NCBI GenBank assembly: GCA_964556485.1 | Contig: CAZKVV010000003.1 | Span: forward strand, 56,610-120,609 | Length of the DNA stretch: 64,000 nt | From: an uncultured Pseudomonadales bacterium | GTDB taxonomy: Bacteria > Patescibacteriota > Microgenomatia > UBA1400 > PJMF01 | Reading direction: 5' to 3' | Shown here: piece after piece, positions 2,285 to 60,991 of the stretch | Layout of the letters: each line of letters begins with the position of its first letter | How positions within the stretch are numbered: position 1 is the stretch's first letter | The notes under the pieces: generated by a model | What the model was told of the DNA's origin: nothing | What the model saw: the letters and a program-made list of their open reading frames with translations, nothing else | Databases searched by the model: none | Translations under genes and position numbers: made by a program

Positions 2285-2567
2285 GTTTGACTACTTTCAA
2301 GCCATAGGGAATAGGCTCTATACCAACTGCTTTTTTAAGTTTTCTGAGCACAAATCGTACCTGATCACCTGCTTGTAGTTCTTCTCCAGGGACCCCCATA
2401 CATTCAAACTGCTTTGTACCTACCTTCACAACCACAAAAGGGTAGCTGCCAAAATAGGCAGTCTCTGTAGCAGGGACCCTAATAACCGTAGCCACCACAA
2501 CTTTTCCCGTTCTTCCCAAAAGTGCAGCCCAGGATTTATTTTTTCGCCAATACTGTGCTGGTTTCAT
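2277..2567 (-). CDS. DUF35-type OB-fold protein, scaffold partner of archaeal-type thiolase/HMG-CoA synthase
   Basis: About 96 aa (MKPAQYWRKNKSW...VVVKVGTKQFECMGVPGEELQAGDQVRFVL), starting at an internal Met. ATGA overlap with the thiolase stop at 2564-2567. Position between the thiolase and kinase genes matches the archaeal complex arrangement. Confidence 0.5.
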   Translation of the reverse strand: MKPAQYWRKNKSWAALLGRTGKVVVATVIRVPATETAYFGSYPFVVVKVGTKQFECMGVPGEELQAGDQVRFVLRKLKKAVGIEPIPYGLKVVKHG

Positions 2568-18076: not shown

Positions 18077-21000
18077 CTAGTGATCTTTTTCTGCAAGTTT
18101 TAACAACGTACCCTGTCGTGTCAACGGAAACTTCGTATGTTTATGTCTTTTCAACATCTCTAAGTAAATTTTATGCCTCTTTTCTGTTGGTAAAACTTGA
18201 CTTTTTAGCCATACCTCAAGACTTTTTCCCATGATTTGTTGCGGTGGATCTTCGTGATACACTTTTCGATACCAACTATCTACATATTCATACAGGTTTT
18301 TATTTCTACGTAGTTTTGGTGGTGCAAAGTCATGAGAGCGCTGAGCTTTCACACCTTTAATCCGCACCACATTTCCTTTTTCAATTTTTTCTATTGGGTT
18401 TAATGACAAATTATTAATAACCGCTGTCATTTCTGCTTTATAAGAACTAAGACCTCCGTTTCTCGAATCACTGAGGGCCTCAACCATTGCGTGATATAGT
18501 CTTTCTCTTTCTTTTGGATCATCATAATCGTCGAATGCCTGAGCTAATCGCAAACAGTAATGAGTTAATAATGGTTCCAAAAAGAGTGTTAGATGGTTCC
18601 CCGGGAACATTTTAACTTTTCCTGCGGTTTGTAGCCACTTACCCAACAACCCACCCTTACCGGCCTCTTCATAGTGCTCCATGATTTGCTCAAAGGTTAG
18701 GGGCGCTGGTATGTCCTTGTATGCCATCTCAAGCAATTCGCCAAATCCGTTTTCTTCTGCCAACTGATACAACTCAATTGAGCTAACAGATTCCCTGTTG
18801 CCATCAAATTTTTTGGCTAACTCCAAAGCTCGATTTGCTATGTATTCTGGAGACTGAGTGTAGGCCGTCCATCGCTCTTCTTCAATTTTTGTTTTCCTAT
18901 GATTGGTAATCTCAATCACATCGGCTGATGCCAAACCTTCTTTCGCAAGCGCCTCCTGGTAGCTCTGATTATCTTTTGGATCCAACAAATACCTTCTCCA
19001 AGCCCTCTCTTCTTCTTCTTTATTAATTGGGTCGTTAGCAGCAAGTCTTTCTCGCAAACCCTCTCCAACCATTTTTGTTCTATTGCTGTCAATCATGTGG
19101 TCAAAAAGCCAGAGTGTTTCATCTGGATGAAGTCTTAAAAATGCATCTGTAGCCAGACCAATTGACTCACAATATCCTGCTAGGGGAATTCCATGATTCT
19201 CTTTGTAACCTGATTTTCGCTTTGTTTTTTCATCTCTGTGCGCAGTAAAATTATCAATTTCAAAAAACATTCGTTCATGTCGCCACATTTGTTGTTGTAA
19301 TTTAATCATTGCCTCGTGATCTGGCCAAGTCCAGTCTTCACTTTTTGCTGTTTCTTTTGTAACACCTCTTGCAATCGCCTCTGGCTTGAGAGGTTCCTTC
19401 TTTCCATATTTAAATTTGCTTTTTCTCAAATCTTCATGATAAAAAAGTATCCACATCGACCAATCTTCGTCATTTCCACCATACCTAAACATACGGTGTA
19501 CTGCAGCTGCCAGCGGGTCGGAGAACATAATTCTATCTGGATCTTTAACAGCACCATTATGTCCGCGTGTTTGAGTTGTTTTTTGTAATTCTCTAAGTGA
19601 GAGCGTGAGGTAGTCGAAGTTTGTATAAATAAGTTGTGCAAACTCTAGAGCGCGAGGATCATACCGTTTGCCACCTTCTCCGAAAACCTTATTGATATAC
19701 CTATCTAAAACTGTACGGCCGGTTTCACCAATGAGGAGAAAAAAATTCATTTCACCATCAAACTCATATAGTGGAGTTTCTCCAGGCCTCAAGTCGTTAA
19801 CGAGAATTGAAAGTTCTTTTCCATCTCTAAGAACTACACACTGGTCTGGCCGGAGTGACGCAGTTTTGACTACATGTTCTAATATTTCTGATAATTGAGC
19901 ACCATATTCTGGGTGATAGGTGGTGGCAATCAGCAACTCTCTACGAGTAATAATTCTTTTCTGCATCTCAGCGTACAGTTGCGATCTATCAGTGGAAGCT
20001 TTCTCATTTTCATGCTGATTCTGATTATCCATTGTCTTCAGCTGGACTTTAACTTTATAAACAATTCTGTCGATTTCTGCTTTTGGATCACCCTCAATGT
20101 TTGTATTGGCTTTTTTCATGAATTCATTAATGACTTCACGTTCTCTATTTCCGCCTGTAGGACCTTTCCACTCTTTCCACAAGAATGGGTCCATACGAGA
20201 ATCACCAATTTCATCGGCTAGTTCAGCCAACGACATAGTGCTCACTTCTGGTTTAAGCATTGTTTCAAGAATTCCTCCAGCATCCAACAAGTCTCTAATT
20301 CTGGGAACAAGTTGCTCAATTGCTTGAACAACCGATGCCTTTTTTCCTGAAGGATTCAAAAGCCCTTTCACGGAAGCTTTAGCAACCTCATCTGTCAAAT
20401 CTATTTTGAGTTGCTTAAGTGCTTTTCTTGGTAAATCTTGTCTTTTTGCCGGTACTTGAGCAAGTAATCTTTTAATTTCAATGATAATTGGGTTGCTATT
20501 AAAGTCATTAAGCTCTTTTGCTGCAGCATCTTGTTCTATAAGCTCGTTTAACTCGGCTAGTTTTGCTGTCGCAGCATCGAACAAACTTTGTATGTAGTCG
20601 TTCTTAAGATCTCCAAAGTGGTTTGCTGGAGTAAGCCACTCGTTTGCTTTTTTTTCAGCTGTTGCATCAGCCACCTTTGACTGAAGTGCTGTAATTCTAT
20701 CTTGAGGAGTATCGCCAGGAGTATACGGAGGTGCCGGCGACACTCGAGCTGTTTGAGCAACTAAATCTTGCAACATTGGATATTGATCTAGCGTTGCTTT
20801 CCAAGTTTCAAACAATTTTGTATCAATTTCAACAATACGATCGTTTAATTTCTTGCGCATTTCCTTTGCTGGATTAATGTATAAAATGAGTATTTGCCTG
20901 TTTCTTCTGACACTAACCACAGCATCGTCAGAGCGAGCCAAGGCCTCTCTAATTTCTTCTGCATTATCTATGAGTTGATCTAAATCTGCTGTGAGTGAAC

Positions 21001-21877
21001 CACTATGACCCACCACTTGTCTAGGATCCCAATCTGGGTCTGCTAAATATTGATTAGCCTCGGCAACAAATAAGGCTAGTATTCTTAACTCGTCGGGGTG
21101 AGAGGTGTCAACACTTTGCCAGCTTATTTCTTGAGTTGGTGCCTTATCTTTAAGTTGACCTAAAATAGTTGAAATATTGTGTAATAATCCATTAATTTCT
21201 GCAAGCTGATTAGTAAACTCTAGGTCATAACTTAAATCAAGATCTGACATCTCCATGTAAAAACCAACCCTCAGTGCCTCGAGAGCTTCAGCTGCTGTAA
21301 AATCGGAATCTGCCACAGCACGCTGTACTTCTGTTAAAAATGGGCGGAGTTTTGCTAGTAGTGCCTTTTTTTCAGTAGTAAACGACTCCAATCTTTGTGC
21401 TGTATCTTCTTCAATGTCTTGAACAGGTGCTGCGTCTGCCTGATTTACTACTTCTTCAAGAGGTTGCTCGGGTGTTTGAGATTTAGCCATGCGTTCCTGT
21501 GCAACTCTTCGGGCTCTATCAAGCAAGCCAGCACCACCACTTTTGATTTTATTCAATCTATCATTAAGAGCAGCAAGCCTTCTTTGCGCAACAATTTGGT
21601 CAGATTCTTGTGCAGCCCGAACGATCTCTTCTCTGTTAGTAAGGTAATAATCAGCTTGAGTCCTAGATACATCGCTTAGTTTAAAACCTGATTTAAAAAT
21701 AAAACTTTCTAACGTATTAAGGTGTTCGTTTATTGCACCAACATCACGGTTGGCAATTGAAGCAGTGAGAGCAGCAATTAAGCGATTATACTCACCTTGA
21801 AGAGCAATTTTTTCTTGTTGTGGTCTTGATTCACTATCTGGTCTAGCCATGGGTAATATTATATCATTTTTCCTCAT
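18077..21877 (-). CDS. giant cytoplasmic protein (1266 aa), unknown function
   Basis: Long uninterrupted ORF with no signal peptide or TM segment and no recognisable motifs. Divergently transcribed from the downstream large genes. Confidence 0.55.
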   Translation of the reverse strand: MRKNDIILPMARPDSESRPQQEKIALQGEYNRLIAALTASIANRDVGAINEHLNTLESFIFKSGFKLSDVSRTQADYYLTNREEIVRAAQESDQIVAQRRLAALNDRLNKIKSGGAGLLDRARRVAQERMAKSQTPEQPLEEVVNQADAAPVQDIEEDTAQRLESFTTEKKALLAKLRPFLTEVQRAVADSDFTAAEALEALRVGFYMEMSDLDLSYDLEFTNQLAEINGLLHNISTILGQLKDKAPTQEISWQSVDTSHPDELRILALFVAEANQYLADPDWDPRQVVGHSGSLTADLDQLIDNAEEIREALARSDDAVVSVRRNRQILILYINPAKEMRKKLNDRIVEIDTKLFETWKATLDQYPMLQDLVAQTARVSPAPPYTPGDTPQDRITALQSKVADATAEKKANEWLTPANHFGDLKNDYIQSLFDAATAKLAELNELIEQDAAAKELNDFNSNPIIIEIKRLLAQVPAKRQDLPRKALKQLKIDLTDEVAKASVKGLLNPSGKKASVVQAIEQLVPRIRDLLDAGGILETMLKPEVSTMSLAELADEIGDSRMDPFLWKEWKGPTGGNREREVINEFMKKANTNIEGDPKAEIDRIVYKVKVQLKTMDNQNQHENEKASTDRSQLYAEMQKRIITRRELLIATTYHPEYGAQLSEILEHVVKTASLRPDQCVVLRDGKELSILVNDLRPGETPLYEFDGEMNFFLLIGETGRTVLDRYINKVFGEGGKRYDPRALEFAQLIYTNFDYLTLSLRELQKTTQTRGHNGAVKDPDRIMFSDPLAAAVHRMFRYGGNDEDWSMWILFYHEDLRKSKFKYGKKEPLKPEAIARGVTKETAKSEDWTWPDHEAMIKLQQQMWRHERMFFEIDNFTAHRDEKTKRKSGYKENHGIPLAGYCESIGLATDAFLRLHPDETLWLFDHMIDSNRTKMVGEGLRERLAANDPINKEEEERAWRRYLLDPKDNQSYQEALAKEGLASADVIEITNHRKTKIEEERWTAYTQSPEYIANRALELAKKFDGNRESVSSIELYQLAEENGFGELLEMAYKDIPAPLTFEQIMEHYEEAGKGGLLGKWLQTAGKVKMFPGNHLTLFLEPLLTHYCLRLAQAFDDYDDPKERERLYHAMVEALSDSRNGGLSSYKAEMTAVINNLSLNPIEKIEKGNVVRIKGVKAQRSHDFAPPKLRRNKNLYEYVDSWYRKVYHEDPPQQIMGKSLEVWLKSQVLPTEKRHKIYLEMLKRHKHTKFPLTRQGTLLKLAEKDH

Positions 21878-22147
21878 AAAACTGTCAAAGAAGATTTACG
21901 ACAACTAATGCCCACCCACTGTCTGGGTACTATCGTACTTGCATTACCTTATTTTTTTCGCTACAGTGGTGAAACTTTACGGAATCTGGTGAAAATCCAG
22001 AGCTGTGCCGCAACGGTGACTGTTACAAACAGAAGTCCGATCTGTAAAGAAACTTTGTACAACCAAAGTATACCGACGAGCATCGGGCTTGCGCCCATCG
22101 TACTACTTTCCACACCAGCAAGCCTTGTTGCTCCTCTCAGGAGGAGT

Positions 22148-23986
22148 ATGTTGAGCAGACAAGAAAAAAACCCACCTACATCCCAATTTGAACAATGGGA
22201 CGCAACTGATTACATTGCACTAATGGCCAATCCTGCTTTTCGCACGGAGGAAGCATTACGAACTCTTTTTGCAGCCAATTTTTTTGCTTTTGCAGCCGAG
22301 TATACTCGAGGTGAACTCATTTCTAACTTTACAATGAATGTTGATCCTCAAAAAGGCCTGTTGGGAATGTCCTCTTCATACAACGAAGGTATGGAAGGCA
22401 TGGGTGAGCACTTTGAAACTAAAATTGCAGGACAAAAAAAGCAAACTGCTCGAGCAGAGGCGGAAACCAACAATATCGACAAACTAAACGAGTGGTCAAA
22501 AACGGCTCCGGTTGATTCCTTTTTTGTCTGGAATAGTCCGCCAGGAAAGATATCTGAAGGATATGCAGGACTCAATTCGCATTCATTCATTTTTATCTAT
22601 CACAAAACAACTGCAAACACAGTGGTATTGCATCAACTCAGAACCTGGATGTCACTCTCACAACATGCTGAGTTTCAAAATCAGATCTCTTCTCATACCC
22701 AAAACATCTCATCCGCTGTAAATGCAGTAGAACATTCCTATCGCATCATTAATAACATTTCAGTCTTTGAACCCAAAGATGTGGGATGCACTTCCGCAGC
22801 AGAAGTAGTTGCAAAACTAACTGAAAGTGCCTACCAAACAGAGCAAACCTGGAAGACGAAACCACAAGAAATGCCCAAAGTTCCCGATGCTGAATATGCC
22901 CAACTTAGAGACTTTTTACTAAGCCTGTATGTGCGTGTGGTTGTACCCGCTCTTCTTACTGAAGTGCCCGAAACCCAAGATGCAAATAGTACGGAGTGGC
23001 TGGCGTTTATCTCCTCACCAGCATATAAAATGCTCATTCAAAAATTAGATGTTGCTTTCGGCATATTAGCCTATCAACCGCTTACTAAATGGGTGGCAGA
23101 AAAAGACGAAAATAAACAACAATCACTTCTGGGGCAGTTGTTAAGAAAAAAAGATACGTCAATCACCACTCTTTCGTTTGAAGAGATTGAAGAAAAACTA
23201 CTTTCACTCTTTCATTTACAACTACAAAAATCTGCAGGTACACCAATTACTCGAAAACAAATCAAAGAATACAATGCCATCGCTTCATCGCTCATGGCTA
23301 CAACATCAAGAGGATTGAGTTTGGGTCAGTGTGGGCTTGGAACCTTTATACCTACTAGAATGTTCAAAACATTTGGACTACAAGACATAGCTGGCTCAAC
23401 TCTTAACCCAGGAATGCTTCTAGGTTTGCCCTCTCACGAAAAAGCTGCAGCCTTTTCATTCTTAACAACCAAAAAATATCTTCCTCTCCACCTTCCCAAT
23501 GGTGAAACTTGGTATGTTTTAGCCAAACACCATCAACTCTATGCCAATTATTTTGCTCAAAATCCAAATAGTTTCACAGCTGATGGACTGCCCATCGGCC
23601 CTTGCGGCTGGTTACTGCGCGGCGACCCTCGTGGTATGGATGAGCTCGTTTTAACCGGTGGAGAATTTAGTCAATTTGAACTACTCAAAGCGTCGTTACT
23701 CGCCGATTTATTAAGCAATCCTCACGACACACTTTCATTACTCGAATCATCCCTCATGCCTCATATTCACTCCGCTGTACAAAAAGAGAGGCTCACTCAA
23801 GTACTACTCACTTTACATGACGCACTTAAAACAACGGTTTCACTTCAGGAGCTGCTTTTTTCTGATTTTTTTAACAAAACAGCTTTTCCTTTAATAGCTA
23901 GTCTTTCAAAAAAAGTTGATGTTCGCCAATTTGTGACTAATCCAGAGCATACTGCCGCACAAGTTGTTGCTGCTTTTGAGGTATAA
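22148..23986 (+). CDS. hypothetical protein (about 612 aa)
   Basis: Start moved to the ATG at 22148 preceded by AGGAGGAG. The upstream 240 nt of the ORF-track ORF look non-coding (odd composition, structured RNA motifs). Confidence 0.5.
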   Translation: MLSRQEKNPPTSQFEQWDATDYIALMANPAFRTEEALRTLFAANFFAFAAEYTRGELISNFTMNVDPQKGLLGMSSSYNEGMEGMGEHFETKIAGQKKQTARAEAETNNIDKLNEWSKTAPVDSFFVWNSPPGKISEGYAGLNSHSFIFIYHKTTANTVVLHQLRTWMSLSQHAEFQNQISSHTQNISSAVNAVEHSYRIINNISVFEPKDVGCTSAAEVVAKLTESAYQTEQTWKTKPQEMPKVPDAEYAQLRDFLLSLYVRVVVPALLTEVPETQDANSTEWLAFISSPAYKMLIQKLDVAFGILAYQPLTKWVAEKDENKQQSLLGQLLRKKDTSITTLSFEEIEEKLLSLFHLQLQKSAGTPITRKQIKEYNAIASSLMATTSRGLSLGQCGLGTFIPTRMFKTFGLQDIAGSTLNPGMLLGLPSHEKAAAFSFLTTKKYLPLHLPNGETWYVLAKHHQLYANYFAQNPNSFTADGLPIGPCGWLLRGDPRGMDELVLTGGEFSQFELLKASLLADLLSNPHDTLSLLESSLMPHIHSAVQKERLTQVLLTLHDALKTTVSLQELLFSDFFNKTAFPLIASLSKKVDVRQFVTNPEHTAAQVVAAFEV

Positions 23987-23994
23987 TTACCCAT

Positions 23995-26900
23995 ATGAGT
24001 GCAGCTGGATTGCCGCCAGAAGATCTTCGTTTCGAGCTTGTCAAACGACTTGATCCTTCTTTGTCCCTCAAAAACAACCGTTCCCAAGTAGAAATAATTT
24101 TCAACCAGCTCAAGTCAGCATTTAAAAGAGGCGAATTAGTTGGGGATTCATTTATTACCGTACAGCTGGCAGATGCTCGAACACGACTATTATCAGTTGT
24201 CTCCAACACCCGTGAGGGTTTGAGCGAAAGTGAGCAAGAAAAATACTTATTTTACTCAGACTTTGCCGCACTACTTCTAGACATCGCTAAACTCTTCAAG
24301 GCAAGTAGTAAAAAACAAGAATTCACCCAATATGCTACAACCGAAAAACAATTAAAAGAATGGGCTCACGAAGCAGGTGCGCCATATGAATCCATTTCTG
24401 AATTTGCTGTGTGGCAACATCGGTATGAACTACAAACACTTCTAGATAAGTTAGCAGCAAGTTTTAAAGATTTTTCAGTTGATGAAGAAGTCGAAACAGA
24501 AGTTGAGGATGAGGAAACAGAAGCTGAAAAAGACGTCGCACAAGAAGATGATGAAAAAAAGCGCAAGCTAATTGCTGAAGCGTTAGAAAAGCAACAAGAA
24601 GATGTGGCAGCGGCTGCAGCGGCCCTATCTAGTGCGGTGGTGCCCACCACTACAGATGGTGGCGCTGCTCTCGCCAGTGCTTCAGCAACTCCCCCTCCAG
24701 TTTCTATAGACCCTAGCAAACCACTTGGCTCGCAACTAACTGCCAAACAACTTAGTCAATACAATGCCAATATTGGTTGGTTAACCAGTTTTACACTACT
24801 CCAAATTGCAGATGAGATGGGTTTGGAGATTTCCACACTTCCACCAGATTTGCGTGGCGAATTAACCGGAATGGTTGCGACCTACCTCACCACTGAGGGC
24901 GACCTCGCCGAGCTGCTAAAAGGTAGTCCTACCGCTCGTCTCAGAGCTATTCGTGGCTTTCAAAAATACTTACAACAAAATAATTTCTATGACAAACATC
25001 AACTCTATCCTTCAGCCACATCTACGCTTGAAGAAAGAACAGACAAGCGGATAAACGAAATTTTAGGCGATACCAACAGCATAATTGACACCAGCATTCG
25101 CAAAACAGTCGAGGATATTGTCCTAGTTCATGGTCAAAAAAGCCAGAAGCTCATTGACTCTTTCGACAATGCAAAAATTGAACTCATTTTTGGACTAGAT
25201 CGATACAAAATTACCATCGAGCAAGCAGATAAACTCAAGGGTGTTCTTAAATCATATGCCGAAGTGAGATTGGATGAACTCGTTTTGCACACTGGTGATG
25301 AAGACACGCTTGAAGGACTGGATCCCGACCAAAATCCAGAATTAAAAGATGTAACAACACTTGTTGATCAAATTAAAGCAGTAAGAACAACTATTCAGCA
25401 AAACACAACCAGTGCAGACAGTGAAAAAGCGGAACTTGGCGCTGGAGCACTCACTTCTAAAGGAGGAGTTTCTAAAAAAATCAAGCTGGCCGTTGAACAA
25501 AATCAGAAAATTTTTGGTCCATATTGGAGTAGTTTGTCTCCCGAGCAGCAGGCTGTTGTGCTCTCAACACTCGATCCGTCATACAAAAATCTGCTTGAAG
25601 TTAGACAGCATCCAGTAGAAGGCTATCCACTACCTCTAACTATTGCTGAATTTAATCCTGATATTCTTCGTCGCTTTGAACTTGAGCAAAGCATGTTGAA
25701 AAACGGTAAAATGAGCCCTGAGGAGTATCAACTCGCTCTGGAAATTGCACAATACAACGATCTAGTTGAGCAACAAGAGGCCGTTGCTGCGCAACTACGT
25801 CAAGAATATTTAGCTCTCACTTCAGCAGAACAACAAGCAGCAATTGCAACCTCACTAGCCCTCGAAAATCTGGCACAAATGCAAGAACAGGCTAGTTTCA
25901 TGGAAATGTGTCAACAAGATGAAGCATTATGTGCTGCGGGTGGTGGTGAATCAGTCGACTCAGAAGCTATCAACGAACCATCTAATGTTGGCGATGGTAG
26001 TCCTGTTGACAACGGTAGAAGCCTGATAAAAAGAAGGCGTGGTAAAAAAGGAGAAGGTGTTTCTCCTAAAGAGAAAAGGATTAAAGCACTTAAAAATGCT
26101 GCTAGCAAAAAAGCTCATGCCGCTGTTAATAGCGGTCTTACAAAAGCGGCTGGAGCAATTCCTGTTGTTGGAACTGCGGCAGCAGCTGTACTCACTGCGC
26201 TCAGCGCTGTAATTGGCAAAGAAAATGCTAACAAGTTGGTAGCTGGAGTAGGTGTTGCCGCAGGCTTAGTTTTTGCTAAAACACTATATGCTTTCACCAC
26301 TATTGGCGGAGCTCTTGGAGGAGCTATTGGCGGAATTGTAGGAAGCATACTTGCCCCAGGAGCAGGAACGCTTATTGGCGCTGTTCTTGGCGCTAATATT
26401 GGCGCCGCCATTGCTCCTGCCTCTTGGATGGGTGTTTTTAGCGGTGGTGGTGGTGGACTATTTAGTTCAACTGTATTTCCAACAGTTGGCTCGGTTGCTT
26501 CAACTGCCACGAACGCAGCGGGTACTGTTGTCTCGGGTGCGTCTAGTGCCGCTAGTACAGTAGCGCAAGCTACACAAGCAACTACTACAGCAGGGTCTGC
26601 CACAACAGCCGCAACCATAAAGGCGACAGGACTCAACGTGATTACTGCAACAACCAGCCTCACTTTCTTGGCGCCTGTGGGAGGAGTAGTTCTAGCAGGA
26701 TCCTTCACGCTCGTTGTTCTTATTGTTATTTTTGCCGCGTTTCTTGTACCAATGCCTTTTTCTTCTTACTCTGGTGGCGCAAATCAAACCGAATCACTCT
26801 ACGCGACAGTAGAAAAAACCTCAAACCCATCATCGCTCAGTAACAATACCCCAACACAAGTTACCTACACTATTTCGATTGCTCCTCGAACTGGGTATCA

Positions 26901-27735
26901 AATTGAAATTAAGGGTGTAACCGACAGTTTTTCAAATGTTGGCGGTACTGGATCTGTCCCCACTTCACCACTAGTTCGTGATAATTTTCCAACAGGAGTT
27001 TTGTCACAGCCAACCACTACTACCTACACCATTGAGCTTTCTGGAGAAGACATACTCGTTAGCAATACCGTCACCTTTGTCATCGACGTTTTCAACCCAA
27101 GTGGAGAGTTAATTAAACAAGGTGAAAGTATTAGCTCAATTGCTTCAGTGCGCATTGGAAATCCACCCATTGGTTGTTTTGAGTTTGCTCCGGCTGGCGA
27201 AAGAATTACCTACACAACTAACGGTCAATCTTACACCAATATTTCTGAAACCATTACTCAAACAGATCAAAACTTGTTTTTGCAATCTTTTACTCGCAGA
27301 GTAGCAACCAATGCAATGTATATATCATTACTCTGTTCTGACGGCCCCATTCTCATTCATAAGTGGCAAGCAAGTCCATCCGGATACTATGCCTGGGTTT
27401 TTGCTCCAAATAAAATTGGGTTTTATGCACCCGCTTGGAGTTCTGGGCGTTGGTTTGAGTACACACTCATACACGAGACGGGTCATATTATTGATGCGCG
27501 CAATGGAGGACTTCGTACGCAATTCTTACAAGTAAAAACAGATGCATCCTGCTATTCATACCCAGCTACCTGCAGTGAGGGTGAATCATTTGCTGAAGGT
27601 ATGGTCCTCTATGTCTTATATCAAACACTCAGTTTTAACTTTAGCAATTGGACTGGCCCGTTCCCTTTTAAATCAGATTACCCCGTTGAATACAACTGGT
27701 ATAAACAAAATATTTTTGGTGGACAGGAGTTTTAA
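23995..27735 (+). CDS. giant membrane protein (1246 aa) with C-terminal HExxH zinc-metallopeptidase-like motif
   Basis: Acidic coiled N-terminal half. Gly/Ala-rich TM cluster (residues about 720-900). C-terminal TLIHETGHIID followed by a downstream acidic SEGESFAEG (zincin-like). Confidence 0.55.
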   Translation: MSAAGLPPEDLRFELVKRLDPSLSLKNNRSQVEIIFNQLKSAFKRGELVGDSFITVQLADARTRLLSVVSNTREGLSESEQEKYLFYSDFAALLLDIAKLFKASSKKQEFTQYATTEKQLKEWAHEAGAPYESISEFAVWQHRYELQTLLDKLAASFKDFSVDEEVETEVEDEETEAEKDVAQEDDEKKRKLIAEALEKQQEDVAAAAAALSSAVVPTTTDGGAALASASATPPPVSIDPSKPLGSQLTAKQLSQYNANIGWLTSFTLLQIADEMGLEISTLPPDLRGELTGMVATYLTTEGDLAELLKGSPTARLRAIRGFQKYLQQNNFYDKHQLYPSATSTLEERTDKRINEILGDTNSIIDTSIRKTVEDIVLVHGQKSQKLIDSFDNAKIELIFGLDRYKITIEQADKLKGVLKSYAEVRLDELVLHTGDEDTLEGLDPDQNPELKDVTTLVDQIKAVRTTIQQNTTSADSEKAELGAGALTSKGGVSKKIKLAVEQNQKIFGPYWSSLSPEQQAVVLSTLDPSYKNLLEVRQHPVEGYPLPLTIAEFNPDILRRFELEQSMLKNGKMSPEEYQLALEIAQYNDLVEQQEAVAAQLRQEYLALTSAEQQAAIATSLALENLAQMQEQASFMEMCQQDEALCAAGGGESVDSEAINEPSNVGDGSPVDNGRSLIKRRRGKKGEGVSPKEKRIKALKNAASKKAHAAVNSGLTKAAGAIPVVGTAAAAVLTALSAVIGKENANKLVAGVGVAAGLVFAKTLYAFTTIGGALGGAIGGIVGSILAPGAGTLIGAVLGANIGAAIAPASWMGVFSGGGGGLFSSTVFPTVGSVASTATNAAGTVVSGASSAASTVAQATQATTTAGSATTAATIKATGLNVITATTSLTFLAPVGGVVLAGSFTLVVLIVIFAAFLVPMPFSSYSGGANQTESLYATVEKTSNPSSLSNNTPTQVTYTISIAPRTGYQIEIKGVTDSFSNVGGTGSVPTSPLVRDNFPTGVLSQPTTTTYTIELSGEDILVSNTVTFVIDVFNPSGELIKQGESISSIASVRIGNPPIGCFEFAPAGERITYTTNGQSYTNISETITQTDQNLFLQSFTRRVATNAMYISLLCSDGPILIHKWQASPSGYYAWVFAPNKIGFYAPAWSSGRWFEYTLIHETGHIIDARNGGLRTQFLQVKTDASCYSYPATCSEGESFAEGMVLYVLYQTLSFNFSNWTGPFPFKSDYPVEYNWYKQNIFGGQEF

Positions 27736-28423: not shown

Positions 28424-29632
28424 ATGCGAGAACATCCAATTCCACAAGACATTACGGGATACCGCTTCCACATTATTGGGAGTATGACTCTCAAGCAATT
28501 TGTGGAGATTTCAATTGGTGTAGTCATTGGCGGCATCATTTATTCAACCAACCTTCCCGCAGTAATCAAGTTTCCGCTCATTCTATTTTCCGTTGCACTC
28601 GGAGGTATGGCTGCTTTTCTACCAATTGAAGACAGGCCGCTTGATCACTGGATCATCACTTTTTTTAGGGTGATGTACAACCCAACTCAATTTTTTTGGA
28701 GACGTGAGCCCAACATTCCCGACTGTTTTAACTTTACTCCCAACGCTCAAACCATGATTCATGAACCAGAAATTGATCTAGGCCCTGCAAAAAAACAACG
28801 TATCCGTGAGTATATGACCTCCGTACCAAATACAGTCGATCCTTTTGCACTCGATGCTTCCGAAAACTCTCGTATTTCATCAATCATGAGTAGTTTTTCA
28901 AGCACTGAGGTGACCTCAGTACAAGTAACACCAACAAAACTTCCTCAACATATATCCGAGAAACCACAACTTGGCGTACGCGTGAGAAGTCTTCGCGCAA
29001 AAGCAAAAGAGAATGTGGTCTTTATAGCTGAAGATGTAGAAATGACAACTACACACGTGCCTACTGGACCACGAATTATTGAGGAAACAGTTAATGGCGT
29101 TGAGACTAATCTTGCCACTCAATATCTCGAAAGAGAACAACTTACTAAGCAATCTCAAAACGTGTCGGAAGTTGCTGGGAATATTGCAATTCCTGCTCTA
29201 GAAGAAATTCATGTTGTTCCCCAAGCAGAAGATGGGACGGTCGCGCCTGCTATCGACACAACCACACAACAAATGATTTTTGATAATTCTCAAGGAATGG
29301 CAATTAGTGAGGGAATAGCCTCAGAAGAAGCGGGTTTTAACACTTCACTACCATTTCCAGAACCTCCAAGTGAACCAAATAAATTAGTGGGCATGGTACT
29401 CAGTCCAACTAATGAATTAATCGTCAATGCTATTGTTGAAATTCAAACACCAACTGGTGCCGTTGCAAGGGCTGTAAAAACCAACACACTTGGTCAATTT
29501 TTCATCACCACTCCTCTCGAGGATGGAGACTATAATTTAGTTGTTGAAAAAGATGGGTACCAGTTTAGCAACCAACATATACAAATAACCGGAGAAATTG
29601 TTCAACCAATAGAAATAAGAAGTCTTGGTTGA
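28424..29632 (+). CDS. two-TM protein (VirB3/PrgI-like candidate) fused to a CarboxypepD_reg-like beta-sandwich domain
   Basis: N-terminal 2-TM hairpin (FVEISIGVVIGGIIY ... PLILFSVALGGMAAFL). C-terminal GMVLSPTNELIVNAIVEIQTPTGAV...GDYNLVVEKDGYQ. Confidence 0.4.
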   Translation: MREHPIPQDITGYRFHIIGSMTLKQFVEISIGVVIGGIIYSTNLPAVIKFPLILFSVALGGMAAFLPIEDRPLDHWIITFFRVMYNPTQFFWRREPNIPDCFNFTPNAQTMIHEPEIDLGPAKKQRIREYMTSVPNTVDPFALDASENSRISSIMSSFSSTEVTSVQVTPTKLPQHISEKPQLGVRVRSLRAKAKENVVFIAEDVEMTTTHVPTGPRIIEETVNGVETNLATQYLEREQLTKQSQNVSEVAGNIAIPALEEIHVVPQAEDGTVAPAIDTTTQQMIFDNSQGMAISEGIASEEAGFNTSLPFPEPPSEPNKLVGMVLSPTNELIVNAIVEIQTPTGAVARAVKTNTLGQFFITTPLEDGDYNLVVEKDGYQFSNQHIQITGEIVQPIEIRSLG

Positions 29633-29665: not shown

Positions 29666-31051
29666 ATGAATGAAACCGTTATTCACTCCACTACTCAAAA
29701 ATTTCTCGATATTTTTGATATTACCAATAATTTAGTGATTCTCAAAGACGGTACTACTTCATTAATTATTCAAGTTGATGCTATGAACTTTGGCTTATTA
29801 GCCGAAGAAGAACAAGATAGCATCATGTATGCCTATGCCGGGTTGCTAAACTCACTTAACTACCCGATCCAAATCATCGTACATTCTCAAACCAAAGATG
29901 TAACTGGTTATCTGAGTATCCTAAAGGATCAAGAAGACACTGCCACCAGTAGAGAAAAACAGCAAAGAATTCGCCGCTATCGTGAATTTGTGAGTAATCT
30001 TATTAAAGAACGCAATGTTTTGGATAAAAAATTTTACGTTACCATTTCTGCAACACCTCTCGAGCTTGGTATGATTGCTCCACAGAGTTTTATCCCGGGA
30101 AAAAGTGAAATTAAAATCACTGGTGAAGAGCGCACGGCTGTTATTGAAAAAGCACGTTATATTCTCGAACCAAAACGAGATCATTTACTCGCACAATTTT
30201 CTCGAATTGGACTGTTTTCTCGACAGTTAACCACTCAAGAAATGATTCAGTATTTTTATATTAGTTACAACCCCGAGGCTGCAGAAGGGCAGCAAATCGC
30301 CGATACTAATAATTACACAACACCCATGGTTACGGCAGGTGTTGAAGGAATGTCCTCTATGAACGCAACACAAATTCCAACCCCTATATCACAGGTTGCA
30401 GCAACTGCACCAGCTGAAACTCAAGCAGTAGTACAACCGACAACTCCTGTTGTCGCACCAACGCCAGCAATAGAGCAAGTGGCCGTAGCAGCGCCACCAG
30501 TCCAAGAAGCTCAGCCAGTTTATTCTGCAGCACCTGTTGCCCCAGTACCACTTCCTGTTGAAGCACAGCTCGAGCAGGTTCCTCAGCAACTGTTAGAACA
30601 ACAACCAGAACCTGTCATTCAAATTGAAAGAGCTCCTGTAGATGTGGTGGTTCCTCAATCGCAATCGGGTGCGTACACGCCAACAATGATGACTACCCCC
30701 ATTCCTCTTGAAACACCCACTCCAACTTCGGTGTCACCAGAACCTATTGCCGCTATTCACCATACTGAAACAGCAGCCTCAACAGAGCCAACTGTAGATA
30801 TGAGTGTTGCTCTAAGCACCACTCCGACTGAATTGCCAAAACCAACGCTACCAGCGGGAATGACTACGACTCAACCAATTAGCGCTAGTGCTGTTACTCC
30901 GCAAGCGCCTGTAGAAGTTCAAACACAGACACCTGTTCCTCAAGAAGCTACTGCGCAAGATGCCATTAATACAACGTTGGGACAACTTGGGGGAATATCG
31001 GTGACGCCAGATAATTCAAACGCAACACTTCCTCCACTTCCTGAAATTTAG
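29666..31051 (+). CDS. VirB4/TrbE N-terminal-domain-like protein with long Pro/Thr/Ala/Val-rich low-complexity tail
   Basis: N-terminal LVILKDGTTSLIIQVDAMNFGLLAEEEQDSIMYAYAGLLNSLN parallels the extreme N-terminus of TrbE/VirB4 (LNKDGSF...RGPDL...E...LNNALRRL). Followed by about 230 aa of PTAV-rich sequence. Confidence 0.45.
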   Translation: MNETVIHSTTQKFLDIFDITNNLVILKDGTTSLIIQVDAMNFGLLAEEEQDSIMYAYAGLLNSLNYPIQIIVHSQTKDVTGYLSILKDQEDTATSREKQQRIRRYREFVSNLIKERNVLDKKFYVTISATPLELGMIAPQSFIPGKSEIKITGEERTAVIEKARYILEPKRDHLLAQFSRIGLFSRQLTTQEMIQYFYISYNPEAAEGQQIADTNNYTTPMVTAGVEGMSSMNATQIPTPISQVAATAPAETQAVVQPTTPVVAPTPAIEQVAVAAPPVQEAQPVYSAAPVAPVPLPVEAQLEQVPQQLLEQQPEPVIQIERAPVDVVVPQSQSGAYTPTMMTTPIPLETPTPTSVSPEPIAAIHHTETAASTEPTVDMSVALSTTPTELPKPTLPAGMTTTQPISASAVTPQAPVEVQTQTPVPQEATAQDAINTTLGQLGGISVTPDNSNATLPPLPEI

Positions 31052-31065
31052 TAGAATGAAAAGTA

Positions 31066-33072
31066 ATGCCTAGCTTGCTTAGTTCACTACCTCTTCCTTT
31101 CGGTAAAAAGAAAACCGATACTATTGTGGTAACTCCAGAGCAGCAAAAAGAACAAGTTGAGTTGGAAAAACTCAAGCAATTTTCGCGTGGCTTGGTTACA
31201 ATTCAAGACATCATTGCTCCGGAAGCCATTGAGGTCGACTTCACCTTTCAAAAAATCAACGACACCTATTCAAGAACGCTCTTTGTTTCCGGCTATCCTC
31301 GCTCGGTGCCAGCCAACTGGTTGTCCCCGCTCATCAACTTCCCACATCAACTAAGCGTGTCAATGTTTGTCTATCCTGTTGATTCTGGTGAAATTCTCGA
31401 CAACCTCAAACGTAAAATCACTGAAATGGAGGCTGAAATTCAGTCTGACCTCCGGGCTGGAAAAATCAGTAATATTAATACTGAAGTGAAGCTCGAGGAT
31501 GCTCGGTTTATTCGAGAAGAACTCGCTAAAGGCTCGGAGCGCTTCTTCCAATTTGGTCTCTACGTTACGATTACAGCAAATGACAAAGATGAACTCGATC
31601 GCGTTACCAAGAGTATTCAATCAACACTTGGAGCCATGTTGATTGTTTCTAAAAAAGCCACTCTCCAGATGGACGATGGCTTCAAAACAACCCTTCCTAT
31701 GGGCGTAGACAAGTTGATGGTGACGCGAAACATGGACACCACTTCTTTAGCAACCACGTTCCCATTCACTTCCAGTGAACTCACTATGGAAACGGGTATT
31801 ATGTACGGCATTAACGAACATAATGATTCTTTAGTTATCTTCGACCGTTTTAAAATGGAAAATGCCAATATGGTGATCTTTGCTAAGTCTGGTGCGGGTA
31901 AATCCTACACGGTGAAGTTAGAAATCTTGCGCCAACTAATGTTTGGGGCTGAAGTCATCGTGCTCGATCCAGAACATGAGTACGAAGATCTATCTCAGGC
32001 GGTTAGTGGCGAGTATATAAATTTCACCTTCAGTTCTTCAGCAAAAATTAACCCTTTCGATCTCTCCAACCTCTATGAAGAAGGCGAAAACGAGTTGGGT
32101 CAAAAAATTATTTCAATTCATGGACTGCTTAAAGTGATGTTGGGCGAAATGACCGCACAACAAGATGCAATGCTCGACCGAGCTCTAGTTGCAGCGTACA
32201 AGGCTAAAGGCATCACTCCCGATCCAGCCACCCAAACCAACGAGCCGCCACTCATGGAGGATGTGTATAAAGCCTTAATTGGTATGGAAGATCAAGAATC
32301 AAATGACATCGCTGCCCGGTTAGAAAAATATATTACTGGTTCATTCAGGGGTATTTTTGACCAAAAATCAAATGTAAGCTTTAATAATCAATTGACTGTT
32401 TTTTCTGTGAAAGAAATGGAAGAGGCAATGCGACCAATTGCTATGTATATGATTCTAGATTTCATCTGGACCCGTGTTAAAAAAGACCTCAAAAAGCGTT
32501 TGCTCATTGTTGATGAGGCTTGGTACTTTATGAAGCATCCTGATTCAGCTTCATTTATTCACTCAATGGTTAAACGTGCACGTAAATACTATTTAGGAAT
32601 TACCACCATCACTCAAGATGTAGAAGACTTTTTGCATAATGATTACGGCAGAGCAATTGTTACAAACGCCTCGATCCAATTTTTGATGAAGCAATCTACT
32701 GCTTCAGTGCCAATTCTGGCAGAAACATTCTATCTTTCTCAAGGTGAGCGCCAGCTTCTCGTCACAGCAGATGTGGGTGAGGGCATTTTCTTTGCTGGCC
32801 AAAATCATGTAGCTCTTCGTGTTGTTGCCTCTGACGAAGAACATCAACTTATTACTACCAATCCTGAAGAAGTGTTTAAGCGTCAACAATTAATCAAAGC
32901 TCAAGCTGCCGCAGAGGCTGCACCTCAACAATCAACCCGCCCACAACCTTCAGCTGCCACCAGAGCACCCCAAACACAGCAGGTGCTGCAACAAAAAATG
33001 CAGCCAACTACTGACACCAGTTTGCCAAAACAACTCAATACCATTAATGACTACATTCCGCCTGAAAACTAA
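31066..33072 (+). CDS. virB4: T4SS ATPase, VirB4/TrbE/TraE family (lacks the usual N-terminal about 170 aa, which appear to be on the preceding ORF)
   Basis: CagE_TrbE_VirB-like block (YSRTLFVSGYPRSVPANWLSPL). Walker A FAKSGAGKSYTVK. Walker B LLIVDEAWYFM. ITTITQD sensor. Confidence 0.75.
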   Translation: MPSLLSSLPLPFGKKKTDTIVVTPEQQKEQVELEKLKQFSRGLVTIQDIIAPEAIEVDFTFQKINDTYSRTLFVSGYPRSVPANWLSPLINFPHQLSVSMFVYPVDSGEILDNLKRKITEMEAEIQSDLRAGKISNINTEVKLEDARFIREELAKGSERFFQFGLYVTITANDKDELDRVTKSIQSTLGAMLIVSKKATLQMDDGFKTTLPMGVDKLMVTRNMDTTSLATTFPFTSSELTMETGIMYGINEHNDSLVIFDRFKMENANMVIFAKSGAGKSYTVKLEILRQLMFGAEVIVLDPEHEYEDLSQAVSGEYINFTFSSSAKINPFDLSNLYEEGENELGQKIISIHGLLKVMLGEMTAQQDAMLDRALVAAYKAKGITPDPATQTNEPPLMEDVYKALIGMEDQESNDIAARLEKYITGSFRGIFDQKSNVSFNNQLTVFSVKEMEEAMRPIAMYMILDFIWTRVKKDLKKRLLIVDEAWYFMKHPDSASFIHSMVKRARKYYLGITTITQDVEDFLHNDYGRAIVTNASIQFLMKQSTASVPILAETFYLSQGERQLLVTADVGEGIFFAGQNHVALRVVASDEEHQLITTNPEEVFKRQQLIKAQAAAEAAPQQSTRPQPSAATRAPQTQQVLQQKMQPTTDTSLPKQLNTINDYIPPEN

Positions 33073-33189: not shown

Positions 33190-34788
33190 ATGACACAAGC
33201 TCACAGTATTACTTTTGCACAAGTACGGCAAATTTGGAAACAAGCCTGTGCTGAACTCCAGCTCCAACTTTCTCCGGCGGTATACAGCACTTGGATTGTC
33301 TCCAATCCTTTAACCCAGCTCACTTACTTGAATGAAACTGAAGCTCTCGCAACAATTACCAGCCCAACGGCGTTCCATTCCACAAATCTCAAAAAGAACT
33401 TACATTTACAGCTTAAGCAAGCCTTAGACAAGCATACGAGCCGAAACTGTAACATCGAGTATAAAATTGGTGATCCAGCTCATGCCTCAAATCAAGCTGC
33501 CGAGCAGCAAGGCTTCTCGCCCATGTCAGCCCAATTAAAACCTGAGCCACCCTCTTTTGACAATTTTTCACCGCCAAACAATCAATTTCAGCAGCAGGCG
33601 GGGATGTATCAACAACAATCAAACACGTATCAGCAGCAGCCTCAGCAATCGGGAAATAGTAACTACAACCAGGGACAATCTCCTAGAGTAGATGAATTAT
33701 TTTCAGAATCTGCGCTTTCAAGCGTCGCGACTGATCGTCTTGGGGCAATTGCTCGAAGAGTAGGCCTTCGTACCGATTACACTTTTGAAACCTTCGCAGT
33801 CTCAACCACTAATGAAATGGCGCATGCAGCAGCTACTGCTGTCTCTCACAGGCCTGGAGAAGCCTACAATCCCTTGTTCTTTTATGGTGGTGTTGGTGTG
33901 GGAAAAACTCATTTAATGCACGCCATTGGCAATAATATTTTACGGAACAACCCAAACTCTAAAATTATTTACTCGACTGGTGAAGAATTCACAAATGAAA
34001 TTGTTGATGCCATTCGAACAAAAAAAGCGGTCGATTTTAAATCAAAGTTCCGTTCGGCAGACGTATTATTGATTGATGATATTCAGTTTATTGCTGGTAA
34101 AAATGCGGTCCAGGAAGAATTTTTTCACACCTTCAATGCGCTTATTAAACAACTTCGCCAGGTTATTTTAACTTCTGACAGACCTCCTCACGAAATTACG
34201 CTACTTGAGGATAGACTAAGGTCTCGTTTCGAAGCAGGTCTCATGATTGATATCGGCCAGCCTTCCTTTGAACTCAGAACTGCCATCTTACTAGTCAAGG
34301 CCAAGGCAGCAAAACTTCCGATTACCATGGAAATTGCCAAAACGATTGCTTCTCAAGTAGAAAGCGCCCGTAAAATAGAGGGGATTATCACCAGCATCAG
34401 ATCTGAGGTAGAATTGAAAGGTAAGTCAATCACACCTCAGCTCATTCAAGATCTGCTGCAGGTAGAGATTGTAGAAAAGCGACCACCTATTAGAGTGACG
34501 CCTTCAGAAATAATTAGAACTGTAGCAAACCACTACAAACTAAAGCAAACAGCCATTAAAGGCACAAGAAGATCAAAATCACTAGTAACCGCGCGACATA
34601 TTGCGATGTATCTACTAAAAGAAGATTTGTCATTACCGCTAACTGAAATTGGAAAATGGTTCTCAGGAAGAGATCACACGAGCGTTTTGCATGCAGTGAA
34701 TAAGATTGACAAAGAACAGTCTATAGATGAACAGTTGCAGCAAGACATCTCTGCGCTTCGGATGACCTTAACAGCCATCTCGAGGTAA
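33190..34788 (+). CDS. dnaA: chromosomal replication initiator DnaA
   Basis: Q-rich N-terminal region. AAA+ Walker A GGVGVGKTHLMHAIGN. LIDDIQFIAGK. Domain IV RHIAMYLLKEDLSLPLTEIGKWFSGRDHTSVLHAVNKI. Confidence 0.9.
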   Translation: MTQAHSITFAQVRQIWKQACAELQLQLSPAVYSTWIVSNPLTQLTYLNETEALATITSPTAFHSTNLKKNLHLQLKQALDKHTSRNCNIEYKIGDPAHASNQAAEQQGFSPMSAQLKPEPPSFDNFSPPNNQFQQQAGMYQQQSNTYQQQPQQSGNSNYNQGQSPRVDELFSESALSSVATDRLGAIARRVGLRTDYTFETFAVSTTNEMAHAAATAVSHRPGEAYNPLFFYGGVGVGKTHLMHAIGNNILRNNPNSKIIYSTGEEFTNEIVDAIRTKKAVDFKSKFRSADVLLIDDIQFIAGKNAVQEEFFHTFNALIKQLRQVILTSDRPPHEITLLEDRLRSRFEAGLMIDIGQPSFELRTAILLVKAKAAKLPITMEIAKTIASQVESARKIEGIITSIRSEVELKGKSITPQLIQDLLQVEIVEKRPPIRVTPSEIIRTVANHYKLKQTAIKGTRRSKSLVTARHIAMYLLKEDLSLPLTEIGKWFSGRDHTSVLHAVNKIDKEQSIDEQLQQDISALRMTLTAISR

Positions 34789-35060: not shown

Positions 35061-36170
35061 ATGAAACTACATATCTTACAAGAAAACTTAGTATTGGGTT
35101 TATCCCACGTAGCGAAAGCGATTCCTTCGAATCCACAGTTACCGATTCTTTCGGCAGTGCTGTTGGAAGTGACAGATACTGCATGTACCCTTTCAGCAAC
35201 AGATTTATATTTTGGCGTTAAAGTGCAACTACAAGCATCTGTTAAAGAAGCGGGTACTGTTGCTATTCCGGGAAAACAGTTTAAAGAGCTTATTTCTTCT
35301 CTACCTCCAGGAAAGCTTGAACTAGTATTTGAAAACGGCACATTGCATATTGTTTCCGAGCGATCTAAAACAAGACTCCAGTGTCCTGCTTCGGAAGAAT
35401 ATCCACAGTTTCCTCTAGTAACCGGCATTAAAGTTAAGTTCGCCACCAGTGAATTTGAAACAATCGATCAATTGGTAAGCTTCTCTGCCTCGACAGACCA
35501 AGCTCGGCCGGTGTTGACAGCGGTGTTGTTAGATGCTGGTGAAACAGGCTTCAAAGCGGTAGCAACAGATGGTTTTAGGTTAAGTGTATATGAGCTGGTG
35601 AAAACGAGTACTACATTGCCTGCAAAGCTACTTATCCAAGCAAAGGCGTTGCAAGAAGTTACCCGTATTGCTAAGAGCGTTGGTGCAGTAGAAGTTTCAT
35701 TTATAGTTTCTGAAGAATTGAAGCAAGTATATTTCTCTCTTTCTGAAGTCGAAGTCTATGTTCGTTTGCTCGATGGAGAGTTCCCTCCATATCAAAAAAT
35801 AGTTCCATCTGTTTTTACCACAGAAGTCTGGCTGGATGGCGCTGAACTAGAAGATCAAATCAAGCGAGCAAATATTTTTGCTAGAGATGCCTCGAACATT
35901 ATTAAATTAGAAGTTGCTGCAGATAAAGTTACACTTTCAGCAACTTCGCCGACACTAGGAACCTTTAGTGGCGACATCCAGTCTGCAGTTGTCACCGGCA
36001 ACCCTTTAGAAATCGCCTTCAATACTAAATATGTACTCGATATTTTAAAGGCAACGGGTAAAGGTAAAACTTGGTTGGGAATGAGTGACAGTTTAAAACC
36101 AGTACTTTGTAAGGCTGAAGATGCGCCCCAAGCCTATTACGTTATCATGCCATTTAAAGTCACTAAATAG
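35061..36170 (+). CDS. dnaN: DNA polymerase III beta sliding clamp
   Basis: 369 aa, MKLHILQENLVLGLSHVAKAI, three-domain length. Canonical position after dnaA. Confidence 0.85.
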   Translation: MKLHILQENLVLGLSHVAKAIPSNPQLPILSAVLLEVTDTACTLSATDLYFGVKVQLQASVKEAGTVAIPGKQFKELISSLPPGKLELVFENGTLHIVSERSKTRLQCPASEEYPQFPLVTGIKVKFATSEFETIDQLVSFSASTDQARPVLTAVLLDAGETGFKAVATDGFRLSVYELVKTSTTLPAKLLIQAKALQEVTRIAKSVGAVEVSFIVSEELKQVYFSLSEVEVYVRLLDGEFPPYQKIVPSVFTTEVWLDGAELEDQIKRANIFARDASNIIKLEVAADKVTLSATSPTLGTFSGDIQSAVVTGNPLEIAFNTKYVLDILKATGKGKTWLGMSDSLKPVLCKAEDAPQAYYVIMPFKVTK

Positions 36171-60775: not shown

Positions 60776-60991
60776 GTGTTTAGTATAGCAGAGCGCGTGC
60801 GCAAGCGTTTGTGGAACGATTGAATAATTGAGTACTAATGATCCGAACAAAGTTTTGGGTTTTATGACAATTTGTTTTCAACAGTTTTGAAAATGAAATT
60901 GAAATGTGTAAAACAAATGTATTTAAATCTATAAATTGTCAACCAAAATAGTTATAAGATTACGCAAAATAAAACAATTATTAGTTATAGG

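Follow-up and report, generated by a model that had tools for sequence, protein, structure and literature searches.

A probable natural two-gene VirB4 ATPase in an origin-proximal type IV secretion locus of Patescibacteria

A stretch of 64,000 nucleotides (nt) from an uncultured member of the Patescibacteria (GenBank assembly GCA_964556485.1, contig CAZKVV010000003.1, positions 56,610 to 120,609 of the forward strand; hereafter the window, numbered from its first letter) contains two adjacent open reading frames (ORFs) that both resemble VirB4, the ATPase motor of type IV secretion systems (T4SS). The question raised by this locus is whether VirB4 is naturally encoded here by two genes or whether one gene has been broken. 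A first-pass annotation had left three readings side by side: a natural two-gene VirB4 with its N-domain tethered by a disordered linker, a frameshifted or decaying gene, and an assembly error. The analysis reported here makes it highly probable that ORF1 and ORF2 together constitute one naturally split VirB4 of an origin-proximal T4SS, with the docking and tail roles that are proposed below. The ORF1 stop codon lies 14 nt before the ORF2 start codon and the two are in different frames, as had first been described:

29666 to 31051, plus strand: ORF1, TrsD-like VirB4 N-terminal piece, 461 amino acids (from the ORF listing)
31052 to 31065: 14-nt gap that separates the stop codon of ORF1 from the ATG of ORF2; relative to ORF1, ORF2 lies in frame +2
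31066 to 33072, plus strand: ORF2, VirB4 ATPase, 668 amino acids (from the ORF listing)

ORF2 had been taken for a VirB4-type ATPase with Walker motifs, and this was confirmed. It has a Walker A motif (SGAGKSYT, amino acids 275–282, 31888–31911) and a Walker B motif (LLIVDEAW, amino acids 479–486, 32500–32523) within a C-terminal P-loop NTPase domain of the VirB4/TraC type, and it matches the Pfam families P-loop_TraG, AAA_10 and DUF87 together with the last third of PF03135 (CagE_TrbE_VirB), of which positions 136–196 of 204 correspond to amino acids 154–211. The solved C-terminal domain of VirB4 (4AG5) aligns with amino acids 241–597 (E = 7.5e-45), and the score against the NCBIfam model for CD1110-type VirB4, conju_CD1110, is 387.9 bits, which passes the cut-off of 325. 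The gene also stands beside a VirB3-like gene, the PrgI-like gene immediately upstream of ORF1, and shares the window with a further T4SS gene, that for a coupling protein (58301–60850). Two domains can be placed on ORF2:

31171 to 31785, plus strand: second half of the VirB4 N-terminal domain (amino acids ~36–240)
31786 to 32871, plus strand: VirB4 C-terminal P-loop ATPase domain (from 4AG5, Pfam and conju_CD1110)

The observation that ORF2 lacks the roughly 170 residues with which VirB4 normally begins was likewise upheld. Coverage by ORF2 runs over positions 172–734 of 752 in CD1110, 278–893 of 894 in VirB4_plasma and 234–777 of 792 in TIGR00929; the match to the TraC model begins at position 251 of 800, and positions 327–477 of 477 in SCO6880_fam fall on amino acids 66–214. 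The first ~170–280 positions of the VirB4 profiles are really absent from ORF2. A complete VirB4 N-terminal domain, which comprises about 400 residues in TrwK, is therefore not present on this polypeptide and is found only when ORF1 and ORF2 are taken together. The 120 best homologues of ORF2 (627–810 amino acids, 76–95% identity) include no fused form, and the closest of them carry the source names Pacebacteria, Woesebacteria or Patescibacteria.

The missing piece is encoded by the first part of ORF1:

29666 to 30310, plus strand: ORF1 globular domain, amino acids 1–215, TrsD-like and assigned through its homologues to the Pfam family PF26593 ('TraC-like')

By sequence comparison, this domain is homologous to the first ~170–200 residues of single-chain VirB4. 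The resemblance of its start to the extreme N-terminus of TrbE/VirB4, pointed out in the first-pass annotation, was recovered as a match of amino acids 10–130 to VirB4_plasma positions 104–236 (E = 1e-6). Amino acids 19–110 also align with positions 24–125 of 201 in the TrsD/TraD model NF041427 (20 bits, E = 5e-4); as genuine TrsD proteins score 228–306 bits and the curated cut-off of 200 bits is not reached, ORF1 is a remote homologue of TrsD. Together with its relatives from Patescibacteria and from Firmicutes plasmids, ORF1 covers CD1110 positions 11–129 and 115–171, VirB4_plasma 97–259, TIGR00929 3–166 and SCO6880 131–297. Since ORF2 spans the remainder of each of these models, coverage by the two is collinear and complementary, which is the reverse of an ORF2 with a full-length N-domain beside an ORF1 devoid of VirB4 similarity.

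A local Pfam scan of ORF1 and its homologues gave no match with a copy of the database that apparently lacks PF26593, so the family assignment rests on precomputed annotations, in which PF26593 is recorded for 118 of the 120 best ORF1 homologues (61–82% identity). No meaningful match to ORF1 came from a sequence search of PDB chains; the best structural match of the ORF1 model is TrwK. Stand-alone homologues of the ORF1 type, 224–377 amino acids in length, number 1139 in the protein collection; the public gene index has no entry for the exact ORF1 protein. ORF1 has no hydrophobic segment that could serve as a signal peptide or membrane anchor (maximum KD19 1.05). A paralogous relation between ORF1 and the N-terminal region of ORF2 itself was considered and rejected: a profile–profile comparison of the two families by hhalign gave a probability of 0.5%, and ORF1 is thus not a redundant copy of that region.

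Natural proteins that contain both parts in one chain were found when 1.84 billion representative proteins were queried with an artificial fusion of ORF1 (1–228) and ORF2 (1–612). Over positions ~10–836 of this query, at least 19 natural proteins of ~780–1100 amino acids align without a break, and in such single-chain relatives the ORF1-like and ORF2-like parts are contiguous, joined by a linker of 10–55 residues. P0262 (882 amino acids) aligns with query positions 15–836 over its residues 18–857 (E = 1e-157); in pairwise comparisons, its residues 21–215 are 28% identical to ORF1 18–211 (E = 9e-19) and residues 272–878 are 39% identical to ORF2 34–630 (E = 2e-162). The fused P0241 (787 amino acids) is related much more closely: its residues 1–199 are 46% identical to ORF1 (E = 1e-58) and the ORF2-like part resumes ~10 residues further on, at about IAPQSITVDF. 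P0241 passes the CD1110 cut-off over profile positions 3–735 and its N-terminus is annotated as PF26593, a weak match. On groundwater-metagenome contigs its gene occurs in the order PrgI, VirB4, Peptidase_M23 ... dnaN, dnaA, which is the context seen in Patescibacteria. All these similarities are far beyond chance, as the pairwise comparisons with natural fused VirB4 proteins show (E = 9e-19 and 1e-58).

The split is a constant feature of related loci. In a scan restricted to one genome per species, 80 loci in metagenome-assembled genomes of Patescibacteria were recovered with an ORF1 relative at 50–94% identity, and the gene order PrgI-like, ORF1, ORF2, dnaA is kept in nearly all of them. The two genes are separate and adjacent in all 75 species-level loci in which both are complete, so that the division seen in the window recurs in every orthologous locus with a complete pair; more than 1000 genomes carry such a pair. 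The frame offset is 0, 1 or 2 in 23, 24 and 28 of these loci, respectively, and the spacer is between -119 and +576 nt long. Adjacency is accompanied by co-conservation, with identities of 50–94% for the N-terminal part of ORF1 and 72–95% for ORF2.

The same order, with a VirB3-like gene followed by a TrsD-like gene and a VirB4 of 620–670 amino acids, is present on plasmids of four Firmicutes:

Staphylococcus aureus plasmid: TrsD of 227 amino acids
Lactobacillus plantarum plasmid: TrsD of 219 amino acids
Bacillus thuringiensis plasmid: hypothetical protein of 227 amino acids in the TrsD-like place
Pontibacillus plasmid: TrsD-like protein of 274 amino acids with an N-terminal hydrophobic segment

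With a hidden Markov model (HMM) of the Patescibacteria ORF1 domain, the protein of Pontibacillus is matched at E = 2e-35, that of B. thuringiensis at 4e-16 and both TrsD proteins at ~1e-8. The model also matches, weakly, residues 19–77 of a fused VirB4 of 775 amino acids that follows PrgI as a single gene on a Lactococcus garvieae plasmid; a homologue search with the N-terminal 200 amino acids of this fused protein returned nothing. In the Pontibacillus protein (plasmid NZ_CP062975.1, locus L081, 2618–3442) the hydrophobic segment ILIGILLAIVGGAGFIAY lies ahead of the TrsD-like domain, and here the detached VirB4 N-subdomain may be anchored in the membrane by itself. The staphylococcal plasmids of the pGO1/pSK41 type and the lactobacillal conjugative plasmids (TrsD/TraD with TrsE/TraE) share with the window the order VirB3-like protein, TrsD of 219–227 amino acids and VirB4 of ~670 amino acids, the last being annotated DUF87. 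They differ in that their TrsD proteins have no long tail, whereas ORF1 has one, and in that these systems are conjugative and include a relaxase whereas the system in the window is chromosomal and origin-proximal.

Quinonero-Coronel and co-workers (2025, Microb Genom; PMC12102498) have surveyed the T4SS genes of Patescibacteria. TrsD is reported there as the most abundant T4SS component of these bacteria, with 2,272 homologues of which 1,664 adjoin virB4, and as remotely homologous to the N-terminal portion of VirB4. The survey lists the homologue of Ca. Southlakia epibionticum as essential, and reports that T4SS genes are often near dnaA/dnaN and that relaxases are mostly absent (PMC12102498). 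The ORF1 family corresponds to this TrsD homologue, and the two-gene arrangement is therefore already known. The window has the combination that marks a chromosomal T4SS of Patescibacteria, namely virB4, a TrsD homologue and a PrgI/VirB3 homologue near dnaA/dnaN; the gene family and its place upstream of virB4 and downstream of the PrgI/VirB3-like gene are the same, as is the lack of a relaxase domain among the window ORFs scanned, which were a part of the total. In the part of the survey covered here, Patescibacteria TrsD is assigned no function, and we found no description of its exact complementarity with a truncated VirB4, of fused relatives in the same genomic context, or of variable disordered tails with conserved terminal peptides (PMC12102498).

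The single-chain VirB4 proteins of the CD1110 family and TrwK/VirB4 of R388 (7O42, 8RTB) are collinear over their full length with the N-terminal part of ORF1 followed by ORF2; by contrast, the window encodes two polypeptides, each with an extra and probably disordered tail. The SCO6880 family of actinobacterial T4SS-like clusters is another natural split of VirB4, although the SCO6880 matches are weak, and its break point differs: to judge by the profiles, the N-terminal domain as a whole seems to be apart from the ATPase. For the pair in the window the break very probably lies at the linker that joins the two halves of the N-terminal domain, with ORF1 1–215 as the TrsD-like or 'TraC-like' subdomain and ORF2 as the rest of that domain together with the P-loop motor. 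The system itself appears to be a monoderm (MPF-FATA-like) T4SS on the chromosome of a Microgenomates/Pacebacteria-like member of the Patescibacteria.

In R388, the N-terminal domain of VirB4 comprises residues 15–400; VirB3 wraps it, the tails of VirB8 bind it, and the VirB4–VirB4 dimer interface is built entirely from N-terminal domains (PMC9259494). By analogy, the ORF1 domain would dock non-covalently on ORF2 residues ~40–240 and rebuild a complete N-terminal domain, and this rebuilt domain would couple the ATPase hexamer to the PrgI/VirB3-like protein encoded upstream.

Both proteins carry additional segments outside these domains:

30311 to 31027, plus strand: ORF1 low-complexity tail, amino acids 216–454, rich in Pro, Thr, Ala, Val and Gln
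31028 to 31048, plus strand: C-terminal peptide of ORF1, LPPLPEI-COOH, a pattern conserved in orthologues
31066 to 31113, plus strand: N-terminal peptide of ORF2, MPSLLSSLPLPFGKKK, consensus MPxLLSSLPFGKKK
32872 to 33072, plus strand: ORF2 low-complexity tail rich in Gln, Pro, Ala and Thr, amino acids ~603–658
33040 to 33069, plus strand: C-terminal peptide of ORF2, TINDYIPPEN, directly before the stop codon, consensus YSIDDYxPP

The first-pass annotation had described the ORF1 tail as Pro/Thr/Ala/Val-rich and about 230 amino acids long. The composition was right (P 16.7%, T 14.6%, A 13.0%, V 11.4%, Q 9.3%); the length has to be corrected to 246 amino acids (216–461) when the terminal peptide is included. 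Its natural two-gene reading also held, given the complementary profiles, the fused relatives and the 75 split loci, but not the notion that the low-complexity sequence is a linker by which the N-domain is tethered, as it is a free C-terminal tail. This tail is probably disordered: in an AlphaFold2 (AF2) model of an artificial fusion it has no secondary structure, with a predicted local distance difference test (pLDDT) score of 20–26 in a model that is of low confidence as a whole. Orthologous tails range from 10 to 458 amino acids (median 166) and cannot be aligned with one another, yet share a composition rich in P, T, A, Q and S.

The ends of these tails are conserved. Of 76 ORF1 orthologues, the window included, 43 end in the strict pattern [LM]PP[LIV][PA]E[IL], and the looser h[PA]E[IL] is found in 50 of the 72 loci with both genes intact; two further loci (L016, L017) also bear the peptide and were miscounted because masked runs of N interrupt their tails. 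It is confined to tails of at least about 100 amino acids, most of which end in it. Further upstream in the tail is a semi-conserved motif, AINTTLGQLG (30962–30991), whose general form [DE]hNxT[LV][GQ]x[LM]G recurs in 16 of 76 orthologues, 30–75 residues ahead of the C-terminal peptide. For ORF2, LP..[FL]..KK is found inside the first ~20 residues of 60 of 73 orthologues and this N-terminal segment is absent from the fused P0241; [ST]I[DEN][DN]Y.{1,2}P is found 8–17 residues from the C-terminus in 67 of 73, with three more carrying variants, and the peptide is lacking only in L075–L077. These three loci, the most divergent, have neither C-terminal peptide, and keep the LPFxKK of ORF2 and the C-terminal domain of PrgI. 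There are hints that the C-terminal peptides of ORF1 and ORF2 are gained or lost together. Within the window both C-terminal patterns are confined to ORF1 and ORF2, and when the ends of other proteins from the window and the related loci were examined for the terminal patterns, none was found apart from the ORF1 tails of L016 and L017. The C-terminal beta-sandwich of PrgI was considered as a receptor for the peptides and rejected, as the domain is present in nearly all loci regardless of the peptides and shows no covariation in presence and absence with them.

Our hypothesis is that the tails are disordered spacers which present their terminal peptides to partners. The ORF1 tail would form an intrinsically disordered cytoplasmic spacer of 246 amino acids, with LPPLPEI as a tethered short linear motif for a partner, and LPFGKKK and SIDDYxPP of ORF2 would be analogous peptides. 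Among the alternatives considered, the one that survives best concerns these tails: the Pro/Thr-rich sequence of ORF1 could be a neutral low-complexity expansion, and its terminal motif a by-product of nucleotide constraints near the start of ORF2. We regard this as unlikely, although it keeps some weight, since the tails vary so widely in length and cannot be aligned between species, low-complexity stretches occur elsewhere in the window (in DnaA, a protein of 1246 amino acids, the coupling protein and a solute-binding protein), and the motif is missing from roughly a quarter to a third of orthologues. A nucleotide constraint would not, however, account for the peptide remaining C-terminal whatever its distance from ORF2, as it does in L028, L035 and L055 with spacers of 321–560 nt, nor for the use of every synonymous codon at each conserved position of the ORF1 and ORF2 C-terminal peptides while the amino acid is kept. 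Free synonymous variation together with a C-terminal position at any spacer indicates that what is conserved is the protein sequence rather than a nucleotide signal, and the P, T, A, Q, S composition is moreover retained clade-wide.

Both halves of VirB4 may have gained motif-tipped disordered tails after fission, and the peptides could form a tethered-peptide network; this we put forward tentatively, and think it somewhat less probable than its negation. Such a network might bind together both halves and the PrgI/VirB3-like protein, or might bring another partner to the ATPase, for instance a substrate, a cell-wall enzyme or the coupling protein. We know of no description of motif-tipped tails for any T4SS ATPase, and floppy tails with short conserved terminal peptides may be a hitherto undescribed feature.

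Several observations weigh against the conclusion that ORF1 and ORF2 form one split VirB4 with the proposed docking and tail roles. An AF2 model of a 1129-amino-acid artificial fusion, computed from an unpaired and shallow alignment, has a mean pLDDT of 35.7 and a predicted template modelling score of 0.23, too low for the model to be interpreted. No partner was found for any of the peptides, the C-terminal domain of PrgI not co-varying with them, and the absence of LPPLPEI, mostly from short-tailed orthologues, implies that this peptide is not essential for basic function. In Gracilibacteria, TrsD homologues are not beside virB4 according to the survey, which makes genetic uncoupling of the two possible (PMC12102498).

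The lack of confident docking in that low-confidence AF2 model, and the adaptor-like character of a long tail with a terminal peptide, would also suit an ORF1 that descends from the N-terminal part of VirB4 and is nevertheless a separate accessory protein, a TrsD sensu stricto, which no longer completes ORF2 structurally and acts as an assembly chaperone, regulator or adaptor, for example by recruiting a partner through its tail. This explanation is improbable given that ORF2 lacks exactly the segment that ORF1 contains, that single-chain relatives hold both contiguously, that the genes are adjacent in all 75 loci, and that ORF1 is dissimilar to ORF2's own N-terminal region. A single VirB4 gene broken by frameshift, decay or a sequencing or assembly indel near 31040–31070, as the 14-nt gap, the change of frame and the existence of fused single-chain relatives might suggest, has next to no probability, as two separate genes in all 75 loci with all three frame offsets, varying spacers and a conserved order exclude both frameshift and assembly error, both ORFs are intact and strongly conserved, and no indel can yield an open tail of 246 codons with a conserved peptide or the conserved N-terminal peptide of ORF2.

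The naturally split VirB4 is set among the following genes:

28424 to 29632, plus strand: PrgI/VirB3-like membrane protein, 402 amino acids, directly upstream of ORF1
33190 to 34788, plus strand: dnaA (Pfam Bac_DnaA, E = 1.4e-67, and Bac_DnaA_C)
35061 to 36170, plus strand: dnaN, which with dnaA indicates a chromosomal, origin-proximal context
58301 to 60850, minus strand: VirD4-like type IV coupling protein, 849 amino acids (Pfam TrwB_AAD_bind, E = 9.8e-13, DUF87 and TraG-D_C)

The PrgI-like protein matches Pfam PrgI over amino acids 5–88 (E = 1.3e-5; 26.1 bits, slightly under the 27-bit cut-off) and CarboxypepD_reg over amino acids 321–389 (E = 1.2e-8), with a hydrophobic peak at amino acids 50–68. 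The protein begins with transmembrane segments, continues into a long linker and ends in a CarboxypepD_reg-like beta-sandwich. It is unusually long, the linker between membrane hairpin and beta-sandwich being ~230 amino acids; the sandwich is kept across nearly all related loci and would lie in the cytoplasm if the protein is oriented as VirB3 is. The VirD4-like protein, encoded ~25 kb from virB4, probably serves the same system as a second ATPase. Neither the ORF1 nor the ORF2 motif terminates its C-terminal tail, which is rich in Gln, Asn, Ser and Pro and ends in a basic peptide, KKKSFQKWKKRY.

Upstream and in the same direction as the pair, the 1246-amino-acid protein (23995–27735) has a long, very hydrophobic central region rich in Gly, Ala and Thr and, towards the C-terminus, the HExxH motif LIHETGHIID. 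It has no Pfam or NCBIfam match, recurs in some related loci, and may be part of the T4SS, either VirB6-like or effector-like. Four further large ORFs adjoining the T4SS genes, at 21908–23986, 18077–21877 (minus strand), 16301–17956 and 11978–15205 (692, 1266, 551 and 1075 amino acids, respectively), have no family match at all and may be additional lineage-specific parts of the T4SS. DnaA has a Gln/Asn-rich low-complexity insert of ~70 residues between its N-terminal domain and its ATPase domain. On the minus strand at 2564–5953 are three adjacent mevalonate-pathway-like genes, for a thiolase, a 3-hydroxy-3-methylglutaryl-CoA (HMG-CoA)-synthase-like protein and HMG-CoA reductase.

The gene pair in the window is a further instance of the described TrsD homologue and VirB4 pair of Patescibacteria T4SS, and its remaining interest lies in the structural role that it gives to TrsD and in the motif-tipped, probably disordered tails on both halves. 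For annotation, pairs of the ORF1/ORF2 type should not be marked as pseudogenes. Epibiotic growth reportedly requires the T4SS of Patescibacteria. A TrsD homologue of this system is itself essential, and the part of the survey covered here assigns no function to TrsD (PMC12102498). As the leading half of the N-terminal domain of VirB4, encoded as a protein of its own, the TrsD-like component would have a concrete structural role, that of completing the VirB3-binding and oligomerisation surface of the motor; this is supported by a partner VirB4 that lacks exactly that part and from the coexistence of fused and split forms in related genomes. The terminal peptides on the tails would, in turn, be testable handles on the partners of this secretion machine.

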